44,831 nt of DNA, taken from a virus. Positions 24,563 through 44,831 of the stretch are shown here, one piece after another. How positions within the stretch are numbered: position 1 is the first letter of the stretch; the number at the start of each line of letters is the position of its first letter. The position numbers and the translations under genes are program-made. The notes under the pieces are model-generated. The model saw only the letters and a program-made list of their open reading frames with translations. It was not told the origin of the DNA and searched no databases. The stretch lies in IMG/VR virus record IMGVR_UViG_3300036940_000089. The stretch is one strand, 5' to 3'.

Positions 24563-24760
24563 TTGACCTCCTCCCCTCCCTAAAGGAAGGGGATTCCCGG
24601 CATCGCTGTCGGGAGTTTTCTGCTTCAATGAGAGTTGCCAATGTCTCAAACAGACACCGGGCTTACACTCTCTCCACAGACTGTTGCGGCAAGCCCTGCC
24701 GCCAATATGTTCCTGGCCGCGTTTATATCGCGGTCATGGTTGGTTTCGCACTCCGGACAC
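24563..24760 (-). ncRNA. Predicted TnpB omega-RNA (reRNA) scaffold overlapping the tnpB 3' end and the right end of the IS
   Basis: Position follows the known TnpB rule. The minus sense contains CCCGacagcgatgCCGGG and the 8-bp hairpin CCCCTTCC-ttta-GGGAGGGG. The exact 5' and 3' ends were not determined. Confidence 0.4.
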
Positions 24761-25779
24761 GTCCACTGTCTTTTGGAAAGAGGCATGGAGGTTTCTACGT
24801 GGCCGCAGTTCGAGCAGCGCTTGCTCGATGGATACCATCTGTCGATACCTATCAGATCGCGCCCATACCACAGGGCTTTGTACTCAAGCTGTCTTAGAAA
24901 TTCCGACCAGCTTGCGTCTGAAATGGATTTGGACAGATGGCGGTTTTTCTGCATGTTCTTCACCGACAGTGTTTCAACCGCGATAGCTTGGTTCTCGCGT
25001 ATCAGCCTGGTTGAAAGTTTATGCAGAAAATCCCTGCGCGTGTCTGCGATCTTTGCATGTAAACGCGCTACGTTCTTACGTGCCTTGGCGCGGTTGTTTG
25101 AACCTTTTTGTTTCTTGCTCAGGCGGCGCTGCAAAACACCCAGGCGCTTTTCGTATTTGCGCAGGGTCCTGGGTGCTGCGACCTTTTCACCGTTCGACAG
25201 CACCGCAAAATGGCTCAAACCAAGGTCAATACCGACCTTGTTATCTGCAGCAGGTTTTGCTGCTACGCAGTCATCGCACAGAAGCGATACAAAGTACCTG
25301 CCTGCAGGGTCTTTAGAAACAGTGCAGGTTGTCACCTTGGCCGCTTTGGGGATGGTACGTGACCAGCGGATGTTTAGCGGTTCCTTCATCTTTGCCAGAA
25401 AAAGCGCCTTCCCGTCCCAGCGGAACGCGCTGGCAGCGTAGGTTGCGGACTGCCTACCATGCTTGGACTTGAAGGATGGATACTGCGCTCTTTTAGCAAA
25501 GAAGTTGTTAAATGCTGTGTGCAGATGCCGCAACGCCTGTTGGATCGGAACAGATGAAACGTCACCGAGCCATGCGTACTGCGGATCTTTCTTGAGTGCA
25601 GTGAGTAAAGAGGATGTTTCGTGATATCCGATACGCTCCTGGCGCTTAAACCATGCGTCAGTGCGCACGCGCAGCATGTAGTTATATACAAAGCGAGCAC
25701 ACCCGAACGTCTGTGCAAGAACCTTCTCTTGCTCAGGCGTTGGGTAGAATCGAAACTTATATGCTCGCTTGATATCCAT
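24646..25779 (-). CDS. tnpB: TnpB RNA-guided nuclease (IS605 OrfB)
   Basis: N-terminal YKFRFYPTPEQ. RuvC triad contexts VGIDLGLS, IAVETLSV and NHDRDINAARNI. Zinc finger CSNCGH...CPECE. Confidence 0.95.
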   Translation of the reverse strand: MDIKRAYKFRFYPTPEQEKVLAQTFGCARFVYNYMLRVRTDAWFKRQERIGYHETSSLLTALKKDPQYAWLGDVSSVPIQQALRHLHTAFNNFFAKRAQYPSFKSKHGRQSATYAASAFRWDGKALFLAKMKEPLNIRWSRTIPKAAKVTTCTVSKDPAGRYFVSLLCDDCVAAKPAADNKVGIDLGLSHFAVLSNGEKVAAPRTLRKYEKRLGVLQRRLSKKQKGSNNRAKARKNVARLHAKIADTRRDFLHKLSTRLIRENQAIAVETLSVKNMQKNRHLSKSISDASWSEFLRQLEYKALWYGRDLIGIDRWYPSSKRCSNCGHVETSMPLSKRQWTCPECETNHDRDINAARNILAAGLAATVCGESVSPVSV

Positions 25780-36499: not shown

Positions 36500-38050
36500 C
36501 TATAGATTTGCAAACGGGTCGTAGCTCTCCTGACCCTTGTTTAACTCGTCGTAAAACCCGCCGATCGCGTCGGGGTCCGGAAAATCCGCACCTAGATCCG
36601 GGTCAACTATCCGAGCAATATTGTCCAGCATGTCATCATGGATGCAGACCGGGAAACATATGTATTCCTCGTCGACGAAGAGCTTTACATAGTCAGCCAT
36701 CTTCCCATCGTGCAACATAAACGGCAGATGGTGCGGCATCCAAAACCGACCGTTTTCAAATATCGGGATCAGCTTGCGGATGCGGTCGAACTTAGGCATC
36801 GGGCCGCCAAGCGGCGTTATGTCGAAGTGGTAGGTCTCTTGATGCTGCTTATCCTCAATATGCTCAATGTCAGAGTCCTTACCGTATTTCTCATATCCGA
36901 CAGCCAGCGGACGATACTTTTTATGGAACTCAAACAACTTCTTAGTGCGCTCCGTCAAATTAAGACGATCTCGAATGCCGTCAATGAGGTAATAGTTCCG
37001 ATCAGGGCCAAGCCCTATGACCACCATTGAGGTGTAGTCGGAGCCTTTCTTTTTTTCTCCTGCTGGGTCTACCAAAATGTAGCGGTTAAATAGGTCGCTC
37101 TCAATGGACGGATAGAACCGCAACCAATCCAGTTGAAACCCTTGTGCTTCGTCGGCTGTTGGATTTTGCAGCATCTGACACCCGAAAACATACGGCCCCA
37201 TGTCCCGCCGCTTCCCAGCAAGAGACTCGGCAGACAAAAAAACCGGCTTGCCGTCTGGCTTGCCGGTATCTGTTGCCGGATAGATGCGTGGTGTTACCGC
37301 CTCGCGCTCCATCATGGATCTGTATGTGTCGTTAAAGTGGTACCGCGTACCTATATGCCGCCGCCTGCCTCCGTGCGCCCCAAGGTTTAGCGACACCGCC
37401 CACCGCTCTGTGACCTTAGCGATCATTTCGGGAGTTGTTACAGACTCCAGGGTGACAACATCGTCATAGACTAGTAAATTAAAATGCTTCGACGTCGGCT
37501 GCCCGTCCACAAGCCCCCACGCCTCTACTGTGGCCTCTTTTGGATTGCCTTTACGTTTGACGATAATGCCGCTATCTAGAGACCATTTTGGGGCCTCGCG
37601 ACGTGGGTTGTCCCACAACACATCAGGGTAGACCTCCTTGAGCAGGGTGTTATGCTCAAACTCCTGCATGATCTGCGCTAAAAACGCTTTAGCGATAGGA
37701 CGTGTGCAGGAAAATATCCCGGCGGTAACCTCCTGGCTCCAGTGAAACGAGTCCGCGCTGTGTGAGTCGAGAACGTCTTGTATCGTCCGCCCGAACGTTA
37801 TCAGCGTCGATTTATAATGCTCTCGCGCCCACAGATCTAAATAGCCGTCCGGTCTCTGCTGCACCTCACTGCACCGGTCAAACAACCAGTCACGATCGAT
37901 GTCCCGACGATGAAGCAACCTTGTCAGCAGGAAAAACAAATCACGCCGCCCGAGCTCATTCATCGTCTTGACGATGCAGCCGTCCTTTTCCGCATCATGA
38001 AGGATGTCAGCATAAAATTCATTCGCTTGTTTTCTGCTCGTAAATTTCAT
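36500..38050 (-). CDS. terL: Terminase large subunit
   Basis: Deviant Walker A WAREHYKST, Walker B LLVYDDVV, and a C-terminal nuclease-like region with acidic residues (ILVDPAGE..., CIHDDMLD). Start set at ATG 38050, which follows GGCGGAGAAAATGC. Confidence 0.85.
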   Translation of the reverse strand: MKFTSRKQANEFYADILHDAEKDGCIVKTMNELGRRDLFFLLTRLLHRRDIDRDWLFDRCSEVQQRPDGYLDLWAREHYKSTLITFGRTIQDVLDSHSADSFHWSQEVTAGIFSCTRPIAKAFLAQIMQEFEHNTLLKEVYPDVLWDNPRREAPKWSLDSGIIVKRKGNPKEATVEAWGLVDGQPTSKHFNLLVYDDVVTLESVTTPEMIAKVTERWAVSLNLGAHGGRRRHIGTRYHFNDTYRSMMEREAVTPRIYPATDTGKPDGKPVFLSAESLAGKRRDMGPYVFGCQMLQNPTADEAQGFQLDWLRFYPSIESDLFNRYILVDPAGEKKKGSDYTSMVVIGLGPDRNYYLIDGIRDRLNLTERTKKLFEFHKKYRPLAVGYEKYGKDSDIEHIEDKQHQETYHFDITPLGGPMPKFDRIRKLIPIFENGRFWMPHHLPFMLHDGKMADYVKLFVDEEYICFPVCIHDDMLDNIARIVDPDLGADFPDPDAIGGFYDELNKGQESYDPFANL

Positions 38051-38444
38051 GCATTTTCTCCGCCACAGCGGGGGATACCGAGTGATTAACATCTACAGCC
38101 CCGGCCACCTCGTGTTTCTCGGTATACAGCCCCGATGCTTTACCTCTGTTGACCTCTGCCGCGATGGCCGCTTGCCATTTCTGATCAGATTCGGCCAGGT
38201 CACGCAGGCGCTTTAAATCGTTTAGATGCTGCTCAAGGGTGACTTGCGCCTTCTCGGCAGCGGGGGCCTGCAGCTCTTTGACCCTTGAGGCGATCTTGGG
38301 GTTATCCATTAACTCCTTGGCCGTGCGATTGATACTCGCCGCTGACATTTTCCCAGCACTGTACGCCTGCCGGTAGGCCTCACTGGCGTTACCTGTCTCT
38401 ATATAGACAAGACAAAATTTTTCCTGTTTCGGCGTCAGTGCCAT
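38019..38444 (-). CDS. terS: Terminase small subunit (Terminase_2-like)
   Basis: MALTPKQEKFCLVYIETGNASEAYRQAYSAGKMSAASINRTAKELMDNPKIASRV is the classic TerS HTH N-terminus. Confidence 0.85.
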   Translation of the reverse strand: MALTPKQEKFCLVYIETGNASEAYRQAYSAGKMSAASINRTAKELMDNPKIASRVKELQAPAAEKAQVTLEQHLNDLKRLRDLAESDQKWQAAIAAEVNRGKASGLYTEKHEVAGAVDVNHSVSPAVAEKMHEIYEQKTSE

Positions 38445-38447
38445 AAC

Positions 38448-38621
38448 TCAATTCTTTCTTGCCTTCCGCGCCATCTTGTTCCCGCACTCGCCGCCGCGAC
38501 ACATGCACCGCCGCCCCTTATCCATAAACCGTCCCGCTGTGCAGTAGGCGCGGCAGTAAGCGGGATCAATGTCGGATTGATTCAAAATATTTTTCACTTT
38601 TTTTATTTTTCTTGTTGACAT
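38448..38621 (-). CDS. Possible small basic Cys-rich protein upstream of terS (57 aa)
   Basis: MSTRKIKKVKNILNQSDIDPAYCRAYCTAGRFMDKGRRCMCRGGECGNKMARKARKN. There is no clear SD and its ATG sits inside the -35 of the plus-strand promoter. The 155-aa track ORF is not credible. Confidence 0.3.
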   Translation of the reverse strand: MSTRKIKKVKNILNQSDIDPAYCRAYCTAGRFMDKGRRCMCRGGECGNKMARKARKN

Positions 38622-38643
38622 GCCGAACGGTGCGCGGTATAGT
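38615..38643 (+). promoter_or_regulatory. Near-perfect sigma70 promoter TTGACA-17 nt-TATAGT driving the plus-strand cassette
   Basis: Read directly: cttgTTGACAtgccgaacggtgcgcggTATAGTtt. The inverted repeat TAGTTT (38640-38645) / AAACTA (38662-38667) brackets the predicted start site. Confidence 0.75.
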
Positions 38644-38684
38644 TTAATCACAGTGAGGGACAAACTAACTAACAGGAGGACAAC

Positions 38685-38993
38685 ATGACTATCAGGGAAA
38701 TCATCACTAACAAAATCGCCGCTTCGAAACTCACGGACAGCGAGATCGCAGAAATGGCCTATGGTATCAACTATTTCTACCCGTTGGACTGCGGCATGAG
38801 CCGCGAGGACGCAATATGGTGGCGAGACAACCAGCAGGAATTTGTTGATCGTCTGGACGCCATCAAAAACCAAACCGCCAGCCGAGGCGAAATGGTTACG
38901 TGTTCCTGCGGTCACACCATCCCTAAAAATTTGGTTATGTCCACCAGCCTCGGGACCTCGTGCCAGGACTGCTACGACAAAATGAGCGTATAA
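38685..38993 (+). CDS. Hypothetical protein, cassette gene 1 (102 aa, C-terminal CxC...CxxC)
   Basis: ATG follows AACAGGAGGACAAC. No motif recognised apart from CSCGH...CQDC. Confidence 0.7.
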   Translation: MTIREIITNKIAASKLTDSEIAEMAYGINYFYPLDCGMSREDAIWWRDNQQEFVDRLDAIKNQTASRGEMVTCSCGHTIPKNLVMSTSLGTSCQDCYDKMSV

Positions 38994-39018
38994 TTACACA
39001 CCAACAGAGGAGGAAAGC

Positions 39019-39231
39019 ATGAATATCGAGTTTGTCGAAAAAGAACAAATCTGGCAAGAAGAGCAAACCCGCTATTGGTTTTCTGTCGACGGCGAAGAGT
39101 TCTGCATCGCCGACACAAACGGAGAAACTCAATTGCTCGACAGCGCCGGGTGCCCCATTGAGGACTGCAATGACCACAATAGGGTTAAAGCCGCCCTGAT
39201 TCCCGAATACAAAAAAAGGACCATGGATTAA
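39019..39231 (+). CDS. Hypothetical small acidic protein, cassette gene 2 (70 aa)
   Basis: ATG follows AGAGGAGGAAAGC. By my count about 16 D/E against 7 K/R. Confidence 0.7.
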   Translation: MNIEFVEKEQIWQEEQTRYWFSVDGEEFCIADTNGETQLLDSAGCPIEDCNDHNRVKAALIPEYKKRTMD

Positions 39232-39404
39232 TGACAAATTACGAATTTAAACAGGCCCAACTCCGGTTGGGCCTCACCAACCAGCAATTAGCCGACACTC
39301 TCAAGGTCTCCCTCCGTGCCGTCGAAATGTGGCGGCAGGGGGCTAGGCCAATTCCTGGCCCGGTAGAAGTTGCGATTAATCTAATGCTTAATCAGCCCCG
39401 CTAG
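39231..39404 (+). CDS. Small HTH (XRE/Cro-like) protein, cassette gene 3 (57 aa)
   Basis: MTNYEFKQAQLRLGLTNQQLADTLKVSLRAVEMWRQGARPIPGPVEVAINLMLNQPR. The ATG overlaps the upstream TAA. Below the ORF-track cutoff. Confidence 0.65.
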   Translation: MTNYEFKQAQLRLGLTNQQLADTLKVSLRAVEMWRQGARPIPGPVEVAINLMLNQPR

Positions 39405-39418
39405 TTCGGGGCTTTTTC
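39394..39418 (+). terminator. Rho-independent terminator closing the plus-strand cassette
   Basis: AGCCCCG-ctagtt-CGGGGCT followed by TTTTTC. In the opposite sense no U-tract follows the hairpin. Confidence 0.8.
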
Positions 39419-39430
39419 ATGCCGCGTCAT

Positions 39431-39535
39431 CTACACGCCACCGCCCTTTTTGCGTTGTGCGCACTGTTGGCACGCCTCAAAATCCAGCGGCTTGTCGCTC
39501 CATCGGCAGGTTTTGCAGTCCCGAGTTATCCCCAT
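39431..39535 (-). CDS. Possible tiny zinc-ribbon peptide (34 aa)
   Basis: MGITRDCKTCRWSDKPLDFEACQQCAQRKKGGGV, the plausible part of the 78-aa track ORF. Confidence 0.25.
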   Translation of the reverse strand: MGITRDCKTCRWSDKPLDFEACQQCAQRKKGGGV

Positions 39536-39639
39536 AGGACACACGCCATAATAACGCCGGAGGTTAGCCCAAACCCGCAGGCGGCAGATAAGGCCGCGAC
39601 ATGGGCCAAGGTGACGGCTATTTCGTAAACTATTTTCAT
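39526..39639 (-). CDS. Possible small hydrophobic peptide (37 aa)
   Basis: MKIVYEIAVTLAHVAALSAACGFGLTSGVIMACVLWG. The ATG overlaps the upstream stop (ATGA). Confidence 0.3.
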   Translation of the reverse strand: MKIVYEIAVTLAHVAALSAACGFGLTSGVIMACVLWG

Positions 39640-39980
39640 TCGCCCAGCCTCTCGATTTCAAAGTCAATGTATCGCCGCGCCTTTTTCAGATCCTCGATAG
39701 CGGCACCTTTTTTCCCAGCCCTTAGCACATACTTGACCACGTTGCCGAGGCAAAAATTTAACTCCCGCGTGATTTGAATAGCCTCGACCGGCTCCCCGCA
39801 TTTGCACCTGACTCCGGTATCCGTGTAGTGTGCTGGGTGGTTAACCATGTCGGCCAACTCGCCTTGCTTGTCGTGCGCCACTGTTGGCTGTCTTGATACG
39901 CAACCCTCATTACTGCACTGCAAAAAATTCCCGCTCCTCTCCAGTTCACTGCCGCAATAGCCACAACAAACAGCACCCAT
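39636..39980 (-). CDS. DUF3310-family phage protein with an N-terminal zinc ribbon (114 aa)
   Basis: VNHPAHYT...GVRCKCGEPVEAIQITRELNFCLGNVVKYVLRAGKKGAAIEDLKKARRYIDFEI matches the DUF3310 core. ATG 39980 follows GGGGAGGTGGAG. Confidence 0.65.
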   Translation of the reverse strand: MGAVCCGYCGSELERSGNFLQCSNEGCVSRQPTVAHDKQGELADMVNHPAHYTDTGVRCKCGEPVEAIQITRELNFCLGNVVKYVLRAGKKGAAIEDLKKARRYIDFEIERLGE

Positions 39981-40138
39981 CACTCCACCTCCCCGTAAAT
40001 ATCCCCGCCTCTGCACTCGCTCTGCGGCAACTCGCCACTCGCGATGAGGCACGCCTGCGGACATTTATGCCGGTCTTGGCATCCCCGGCAGCATGCGCCG
40101 TCTTTTCCCCTTATTTCGCAGCGGCAGCGTGTTTTCAT
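39980..40138 (-). CDS. Tiny Cys-rich protein (52 aa)
   Basis: MKTRCRCEIRGKDGACCRGCQDRHKCPQACLIASGELPQSECRGGDIYGEVE. ATGA and TGATG overlaps at its two ends. Confidence 0.4.
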   Translation of the reverse strand: MKTRCRCEIRGKDGACCRGCQDRHKCPQACLIASGELPQSECRGGDIYGEVE

Positions 40139-41128: not shown

Positions 41129-41158
41129 AGTATAGCGAATAGGGGTAGCGAATGTCAA
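41129..41158 (-). promoter_or_regulatory. Promoter TTGACA-18 nt-TATACT (minus strand) flanked by inverted repeat GGGGTAG/CTACCCC
   Basis: The minus sense reads ttaTTGACAttcgctacccctattcgcTATACTtg. The 7-bp arms at 41142-41148 and 41172-41178 bracket the -35. Confidence 0.55.
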
Positions 41159-44691: not shown

Positions 44692-44831
44692 TTACCCCGC
44701 TTTATCAAGATGCTGCTTACGCTTGCCGTCTCCAGCCCACACCTGGAATTCTTTGCACTCGCGGCATGTAGACATGCAGAACGCAAACAGTTTAGCGTGG
44801 CATCTATGACACGGCGGAAGGTCGTCGTGCC
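44692..44831 (-). CDS. 3' end of the junction-spanning gene (duplicate copy of 1-127 plus the last 13 nt)
   Basis: Same frame as feature 1-335. It reads ...KRKQHLDKAG and stops at TAA 44694-44692. Confidence 0.6.
   Translation of the reverse strand, partial: HDDLPPCHRCHAKLFAFCMSTCRECKEFQVWAGDGKRKQHLDKAG
44705..44831. repeat. Terminal overlap copy (identical to 1-127)
   Basis: Direct comparison of the two window ends. Confidence 0.9.

Follow-up and report, generated by a model that had tools for sequence, protein, structure and literature searches.

Published work on operons that code for anti-CRISPR (Acr) proteins and their anti-CRISPR-associated (Aca) regulators describes promoters with an inverted repeat, control of as many as three adjacent operons by a single Aca, and fusions of Acr to Aca proteins (PMC13551039, PMC9410881, PMC12658196). 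AcrIE9 is a verified inhibitor of type I-E systems (PMC12248084, PMC12740422) and AcrIF11 is a type I-F ADP-ribosyltransferase (10.1101/2024.08.26.609590). Mobile cassettes of another kind, the promoter-early stem-loop (PeSL) cassettes, were described in T4-like phages (PMC2839356, PMC4122927). The subject of this work is a three-gene cassette, g1-g2-g3, of the IMG/VR virus record IMGVR_UViG_3300036940_000089, whose complete stretch of 44,831 nucleotides is called here the window. The cassette is read from the plus strand, antisense to the surrounding genes, and has its own promoter and terminator. It codes for a zinc-ribbon protein (g1), a small acidic protein (g2) and a helix-turn-helix (HTH) protein (g3) of a family named here HTH-A. 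The cassette is probably an early counter-defence operon of the acr-aca type that is transcribed by the host RNA polymerase, in agreement with the preliminary description of the window that proposed an acr-aca-like anti-defence role. This reading is favoured because a regulator conserved in last position is paired with hypervariable cargo, the mosaic breakpoints are exact, the promoters are repeated and have a dyad in their spacer, homologues of AcrIE9 and AcrIF11 are present in sister arrays, g2 moves between loci with varied partners, and cargo-HTH fusions occur.

The organization of the cassette was compared in about 35 related loci, with 27 cargo proteins. HTH-A is the product of the last gene of the plus-strand cassette in every relative, and in all but one longer contig the cassette sits between terS and the DUF3310 side. 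It is found in phages with T7-type, SU10-type and P22-type portals. Upstream of HTH-A, the operons follow 11 different architectures, whose cargo proteins belong to 25 or more unrelated families. The architectures are g1 + g2, a g1-like protein + 93 aa, 102 + 61 aa, 95 + 86 aa, 96 aa + a 75-aa::HTH in-frame fusion, 154 aa + a 72-aa::HTH fusion, 92 + 77 aa, 127 aa alone, three genes, 87 + 112 aa, and 120 aa alone. The isoelectric point (pI) is below 6 for 21 of the 27 cargo proteins, and only two pairs are even weakly related. No Pfam family was recognized in the cargo upstream of HTH-A, whose one PHROGs match is to a family of unknown function; the scan of sister cargo against Pfam, PHROGs and the Protein Data Bank (PDB) recognized only the homologues of AcrIE9 and AcrIF11. 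The in-frame cargo::HTH fusions have 129-132 residues, with a cargo part of ~75 aa (L017, L018, L019/L028, L031) or 72 aa (L020, L030), and as judged from their sequence they could be bifunctional Acr-Aca proteins.

The constant ends of the cassette delimit the region that is exchanged. In BLASTN alignments, the homology between the window and relatives with ~90% identical flanks stops at 38689, at the g1 ATG, and resumes at 39231-39243, at the g3 ATG. The boundaries are the same even among phages whose portals and terminases are unrelated. Six phages of unrelated backbone (SU10- or P22-type portals) share with the window only short segments, which correspond to the promoter and leader (38573-38688) and to the HTH gene with its terminator (39243-39473); four of the six have in addition part of the DUF3310 gene. 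The terminator is thus kept together with the HTH gene, also in unrelated phages.

A promoter and leader region of ~85 bp is conserved ahead of unrelated cargo. Its 27 distinct versions have identical hexamers and 17-nt spacing, and the T-rich tract found directly upstream of the -35 hexamer is present in 27/27 of them. Loci have up to 3 copies of the promoter, and in L019 the HTH protein is encoded by the last operon only. The position of the -10 hexamer predicts a transcription start near 38650, and the core of the leader that follows, CACAGTGAGGGACAAAC, is common to cassettes of different HTH types. The leader has no match in Rfam and no hairpin that appears stable by eye. The promoter was previously described as the best sigma70 promoter of the window: it is indeed near-consensus, with a score of 11/12, but this score is tied by two minus-strand sites at 41158 and 41007. 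The one at 38615 (+) is the only of the three with 17-bp spacing.

The spacer between the -35 and -10 hexamers contains a dyad whose family consensus is CCGnAC-N3-GTnCGG. The 221 kb of related loci have 21 sites of this consensus, all of them in cassette promoters, while 0.5 is expected from shuffled sequences, and the window has a single relaxed site, found in the spacer of the cassette promoter. The HTH looks therefore like a local rather than a global regulator. The complementarity of the dyad arms is 4/6 in the window, 5/6 in most relatives and 6/6 in L012 and L032. HTH variants with the recognition helix SLRAVEMWRQG go along with the half-site pair CCGAAC and CCGCAC, in either orientation, and the variant with SLRLVEKMRQG with the half-sites CCGTAC and CCGGAC; the cassettes of the paralogous HTH-B protein have different spacers. 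This pattern suggests that the spacer dyad is likely the operator of g3. The preliminary description had assigned the operator to another inverted repeat, TAGTTT-N16-AAACTA, said to bracket the transcription start. The repeat exists, with its left arm upstream of the predicted start site, but sister promoters have changes in its arms (TAGTAT, AAACCA) that are not compensated and disrupt the pairing. It was rejected because it is not conserved, and is probably not the operator.

Known anti-CRISPR proteins have homologues in two sister arrays. All cargo proteins were concatenated and searched against PDB sequences, and the two strong matches were confirmed with the single protein. The product of L030 1707-1946 is an AcrIE9 homologue (9WDL, E 4.9e-28), and that of L033 82-528 is an AcrIF11_Pae2 homologue (8DWQ, E 2e-56) that also matches AcrIF11 (6KYF). 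Both genes belong to plus-strand arrays and lie behind promoters of the same build as that of the window. The order in L030 is [promoter]-141 aa-HTH-B-acrIE9-like-[promoter]-154 aa-72 aa::HTH-A. L033 features three tandem operons: [promoter]-acrIF11-like-RHH-like ORF-[terminator], followed by [promoter]-52 aa-HTH-B and by [promoter]-102 aa-61 aa-HTH-A (RHH, ribbon-helix-helix; ORF, open reading frame). This locus type is tied to anti-CRISPR function because the AcrIE9 and AcrIF11_Pae2 homologues are found in the same arrays of L030 and L033. Proteins g1 and g2 show no similarity to either inhibitor. Within L033, the operon at 18-870 combines a promoter, whose spacer holds a GTCATGAC palindrome, with the AcrIF11_Pae2-like gene, an RHH-like ORF of 69 aa (552-761) and a terminator. 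No PDB match was obtained for this ORF; it may code for an RHH-type regulator comparable to Aca14.

The acidic protein g2 (pI 4.37, net charge -9.4; ratio of nonsynonymous to synonymous polymorphism, pN/pS, 0.14-0.30) is the best candidate effector of the cassette. Its AlphaFold2 model (predicted local distance difference test score, pLDDT, 91.6) is a four-strand beta meander followed by a carboxyl terminus helix; Foldseek found no PDB match for this fold and retrieved from BFVD only uncharacterized viral proteins. There are four clusters of g2 homologues. At 74% identity, g2 is found in the phage-plasmid-like contig L003, directly followed by a different ORF of 61 aa. At 59% identity, it is found in the Shewanella plasmid pSH190041-1 (L040), behind a promoter whose spacer carries a 7-1-7 palindrome and ahead of an unannotated 66-aa ORF and a terminator. 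The ORFs downstream of g2 in these two contigs have no PDB match, and that of L040 belongs to phrog_18848, of unknown function. As judged from these sequence contexts, g1 and g2 are independent cargo modules.

Protein g1 was called unrecognisable in the preliminary description, and a word-indexed search made it look like an orphan. An exhaustive HMMER search revealed instead a large uncharacterized zinc-ribbon family; at E <= 1e-3 it comprises 517 cluster representatives, of which 72 reach E <= 1e-10. The term "unrecognisable" does not hold for g1 if it is taken to mean an orphan. The members of the family have ~100-130 residues and the motifs YGIxYF and CxCGH-x8-VMSxSxGTSCPDCYDRMS, and g1 is composed of a helical amino terminus domain and a carboxyl terminus CxCGH...CxxC zinc ribbon. 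In 46 homologues, the cysteines C75, C93 and C96 do not vary and C73 varies hardly at all. The alignment of these 46 members matches no Pfam, PHROGs or PDB family, and the AlphaFold2 model of g1 (pLDDT 79.5) has no significant Foldseek match in the PDB. Proteins of the g1 type are also coded by the first gene of the HTH-A cassettes L096 and L099, with other partners. The neighbours of the family are variable in 53 IMG/VR loci, where a fixed partner is absent, and a Pfam scan of ten of these neighbours gave NikA-like and SNF2 matches only. When compared to L001 (4546-4731), from an otherwise near-identical phage, the amino terminus half of g1 (38685-38870) has a synonymous divergence (pS) of 0.78, while that of the adjacent g2 is 0.14. 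This local divergence suggests allele replacement or rapid diversification of g1.

The regulator candidate g3 has 16 clusters of homologues, most of them 79-95% identical. Its assignment as an HTH protein was confirmed by the match to phrog_7950, annotated as "transcriptional repressor" (E 6.6e-7), and by profile matches to XRE-type HTH structures, with weak similarity to the structures of the Cro, CI and 434 repressors. The HTH-A profile has no match to an Aca protein among PDB sequences at E < 0.6. The paralogous HTH-B protein (65-66 aa, Pfam HTH_3) ends a variable-cargo mini-cassette of its own with a different promoter spacer. This mini-cassette, absent from the window, immediately precedes the HTH-A cassette of many relatives (L008 3964-4388, L015, L017, L019, L021, L033; variants in L013, L020, L030, L099). 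A promoter of the same build is also found immediately downstream of a diverged gene coding HTH-A3 (L025 483 and L035 1424), so that a further operon is predicted to follow the regulator in that lineage.

The features of the cassette and of its immediate flanks are listed in Table 1. The layout proposed in the preliminary description, composed of a promoter, three genes coding proteins of 102, 70 and 57 aa and a terminator, was found at the positions given there, and so were the strongly acidic nature of the second protein and the cluster of conserved cysteines in the carboxyl terminus of the first. No second supported multi-gene unit was seen on the plus strand of the window, also as proposed. 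The g3 start codon overlaps the g2 stop codon (TAATG), by which the two genes are translationally coupled, and the g3 stop codon lies within the loop of the terminator. The three genes are under purifying selection (pN/pS 0.14-0.32).

Table 1. Positions of the cassette elements and neighbouring genes in the window.
Feature	Coordinates	Strand	Remarks
terS, flanking gene	38019-38444	-	
T-rich UP-element-like tract, TTTTCACTTTTTTTATTTTTCTTG	38591..38614	+	directly 5' of -35; putative function
sigma70-type promoter TTGACA-17-TATAGT	38615..38643	+	scores 11/12
candidate operator, dyad CCGAAC-GGT-GCGCGG	38623..38637		in -35/-10 spacer, abuts -10
inverted repeat TAGTTT (38640-38645) / AAACTA (38662-38667), N16	38640..38667		operator of the preliminary description
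conserved leader, 5' untranslated region of ~35 nt	38644..38684	+	core CACAGTGAGGGACAAAC (38649-38665); Shine-Dalgarno AGGAGG (38674-38679)
g1, 102-aa cargo protein	38685..38993	+	AGGAGG 5 nt 5' of ATG
g2, 70-aa acidic cargo protein	39019..39231	+	GAGGAGG ahead of start
g3, 57-aa XRE-type HTH protein (HTH-A)	39231..39404	+	putative Aca-like autorepressor
terminator-like hairpin inside g3	39253..39274	-	poor U-tract
intrinsic terminator closing the operon	39394..39413	+	7-pair stem, 6 GC pairs, then TTTTT
DUF3310 gene, flanking	39636-40064	-	

A mechanism can be proposed from this organization. On infection, the near-consensus promoter and the strong ribosome-binding site would cause g1 and g2 to be made in a burst, and these small cargo proteins would neutralize host immunity or another host function. 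Translation of the coupled last gene would yield the small HTH protein. As g3 accumulates it would bind, presumably as a dimer, to CCGnAC-N3-GTnCGG between the -35 and the -10, blocking RNA polymerase and turning the operon off. The same repressor would also silence, in relatives, the neighbouring operons with the same promoter. The promoter/leader and the HTH gene with its terminator could act as homology arms at which recombination between co-infecting phages swaps the cargo. We infer from the data above the DNA binding and repression by g3, the early timing of the operon and the anti-defence activity of g1 and g2.

Several observations weigh against the acr-aca assignment. The Acr homologues belong to adjacent operons of sister loci; none is found in an HTH-A operon or in the window. 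For g1 and g2, searches of Pfam, PHROGs, NCBIfam, PADLOC and the PDB (sequences and folds) returned no known Acr and no protein of an anti-defence or defence family. Proteins of the g1 family are widespread in other phage contexts that lack HTH-A, so that g1 could serve an ordinary early function. The dyad of the window is imperfect, and the dyads of the promoter copies do not count as independent observations because these copies are homologous. A broadened HTH-A + HTH-B profile matches Aca7 (E 0.0015), Aca10 (7XI5, E 0.013) and Aca3 (E 0.09), while generic XRE, HipB and Cro proteins score at least as well, and on sequence grounds g3 is not assignable to the structurally solved families Aca1, Aca2, Aca3, Aca7 or Aca10. 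As for the defining traits of the operon class, the regulator is in last position and is paired with many unrelated upstream genes, while the operon of the window holds neither a protein of demonstrated anti-CRISPR activity nor a homologue of one. Because it has no verified Acr and sits in an Acr-bearing locus type, the cassette is a candidate, not a proven, acr-aca member.

The alternative that best accounts for part of these observations is a generic early cassette for host takeover or accessory functions, with the same autoregulated arrangement of promoter, cargo and HTH, whose g1 and g2 would act on host metabolism, on transcription or on competing phages and whose HTH would be a Cro-like early-to-late switch. 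The host-type sigma70 consensus promoter and the unannotated cargo agree with it, as do the wide occurrence of the g1 family in arrays of small genes in many phages that lack this HTH and the leader common to cassettes of different HTH types. Moreover, T4-like phages have conserved promoter cassettes around ORFans without a link to anti-defence (PMC2839356). This explanation is plausible but rather unlikely in face of the bona fide Acr homologues in two sister arrays, of the extreme turnover of mostly acidic cargo, as found in anti-defence loci, and of the confinement of the spacer dyad to cassette promoters, which makes the HTH look local.

A toxin-antitoxin, abortive-infection or superinfection-exclusion module, in which the HTH would be a DNA-binding antitoxin or a regulator, is very improbable. 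Its layout would be that of a small autoregulated operon of two to three genes, the HTH profile matches an Xre/MbcA antitoxin structure (E 4.6e-4), and the HTH has weak matches to the antitoxin-type families YdaS_toxin (E 0.028) and MqsA, carboxyl terminus (E 0.19). Nevertheless, no toxin domain was found in g1 or g2, which have no significant PADLOC match, those of the HTH are weak (E 0.006 or worse), and the HTH gene is last rather than first. Among 185,579 genomes of bacteria and archaea, the HTH family is all but missing, with a single weak match and none as a prophage gene, and a toxin would not be replaced by at least 25 unrelated proteins while its antitoxin stays. There is equally little probability that the cassette serves as a switch for lysogeny or immunity, in which g3 would repress lytic genes in the manner of CI or Cro, as its small XRE-type HTH with weak Cro/CI/434 similarity and its transcription opposite to the rest of the genome could suggest. 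This reading was rejected on the scan of ten large ORFs, which detected no integrase, and on the lack of the HTH among prophage genes in the genome collection; in addition, the candidate operator is found in the window only at the promoter of the cassette itself, and the same HTH is present in phages with unrelated replication and packaging modules.

It was also proposed that the cassette is a gate for convergent transcription, which would block or time the leftward read-through from early genes into terS and the packaging genes. Its antisense position between the DUF3310 side and terS, in all but one longer contig, fits this proposal, and no sigma70-like minus-strand promoter was found ahead of terS. 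The claim that the edge of the cassette lacks a minus-strand terminator stands for the operon terminator, which scores as such on the plus strand only, but has to accommodate the minus-strand hairpin inside g3. In some relatives the pairing of this hairpin is maintained by synonymous changes, with compensatory CAA/TTG to CAG/CTG replacements; in many others it is lost, and its U-tract is poor. A gate would moreover not need a hypervariable and selected protein cargo, and a gate as the main role of the cassette is very improbable; it is compatible with the acr-aca-type explanation, of which it could be a by-product.

The remainder of the window corresponds to a podophage-like genome with a DnaB helicase and a T7-type portal ~40% identical to portals of podophages of Proteobacteria. 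It is taken as a complete genome of ~44.7 kb because bases 1-127 recur at 44705-44831, as an assembly overlap or a terminal repeat. The GC content is 52.5%, and neither tRNAs nor Rfam families were found. A nucleotide search of the region in 50,697 phage records identified no annotated close relative, only short matches to terS or to a WhiB-like gene. Between the cassette and terS, a small Cys-rich ORF (~38448-38582, minus strand; ...CRAYCTAGRFMDKGRRCMCRGGECGNKMARKARKN*) stops 4 nt ahead of the terS ATG. Because the region is conserved in sister loci, the ORF may be a gene for a small zinc-binding protein that lacks annotation. A strong hairpin that scores as a bidirectional terminator (41096-41073) lies ~35 nt downstream of the minus-strand promoter TTGACA-18-TATACT (11/12) of 41158-41065, so that a transcript of ~65 nt is predicted, possibly a small RNA; it has no match in Rfam. 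The promoter TTGTCA-16-TATAAT (11/12) of 41007-40810, also on the minus strand, precedes by a leader of ~170 nt an 81-aa ORF (40809-40564) and probably drives early leftward transcription in the direction of the cassette. Two other minus-strand genes were noted. The first (346-2694) codes for a 782-aa fusion of a SNF2-type helicase and an N6/N4 DNA methylase, a domain pair also found in the sister phage L013 (729 aa). The second, located within the structural/tail block (24646-25779), is a TnpB / IS605 OrfB-type gene whose product has HTH_OrfB_IS605, OrfB_IS605 and Cas12f1-like TNB domains; a TnpB gene is also present on the L003 contig.

A broader interpretation, which is possible but for which the odds are against it, is that the promoter/leader and the HTH/terminator form a portable "socket" that serves, across unrelated phage lineages, at least 25 counter-defence proteins swapped by homologous recombination, as in an integron without an integrase. 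Protein g2 and possibly the g1 zinc-ribbon family would then be new anti-CRISPR or anti-defence families, HTH-A and HTH-B new Aca families, and the cargo-HTH fusions bifunctional Acr-Aca proteins. If the acr-aca-type reading is correct, the HTH and its promoter provide a new anchor for guilt-by-association discovery, in which one search with them already yields at least 25 unannotated candidate anti-defence families. They would include the g1 zinc-ribbon family, with its more than 500 cluster representatives, and g2, a mobile gene that occurs in a podophage-like phage, in a phage-plasmid-like contig and in a Shewanella plasmid. Aca-type regulation would extend to apparently virulent, uncultivated phages, and the exact breakpoints show that conserved regulatory ends are the means by which counter-defence cargo could be shared among unrelated phages.

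The described acr-aca operons to which the cassette was compared are acrIF1-aca1 of JBD30, acrIF8-aca2 of ZF40, acrIC7-acrIC6-aca10 and acrIF11-aca7. Common traits are a strong promoter, which carries here an imperfect inverted repeat as candidate operator, one to three small, mostly acidic and unrelated effector genes, and a small HTH gene in last position, whose product is paired with many different upstream genes and whose motif precedes up to three neighbouring operons. The cargo-HTH fusions of sister loci are comparable to AcrIF24 or AcrIIA1. The cassette differs from these operons in its candidate operator, a 6-3-6 dyad within the spacer, while the sites described for Aca7, Aca10 and Aca11 have 19-22 bp, and in its conserved 5' untranslated region, which lacks the inverted repeat or hairpin of the Aca1/Aca2 RNA motifs. 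It is also found in uncultivated, apparently non-temperate phages, antisense between terS and early genes. With small phage repressors of the Cro/CI and XRE types, g3 shares the signature of the HTH fold and would, as predicted from its sequence, repress from a promoter dyad; unlike in Cro/CI systems, there is no evidence for a lysogeny module, and the window has no site of the candidate operator outside the cassette promoter. The resemblance to PeSL cassettes is functional only, as the sequences are unrelated. The right arm is here a regulator gene with its terminator rather than a promoter/stem-loop, and the cassette is common to phages with unrelated structural modules. As in PeSL cassettes, repeated and conserved early-promoter motifs flank ORFans that are swapped in a hyperplastic region, and replacements break exactly at the motifs, which therefore points to recombination between repeats.

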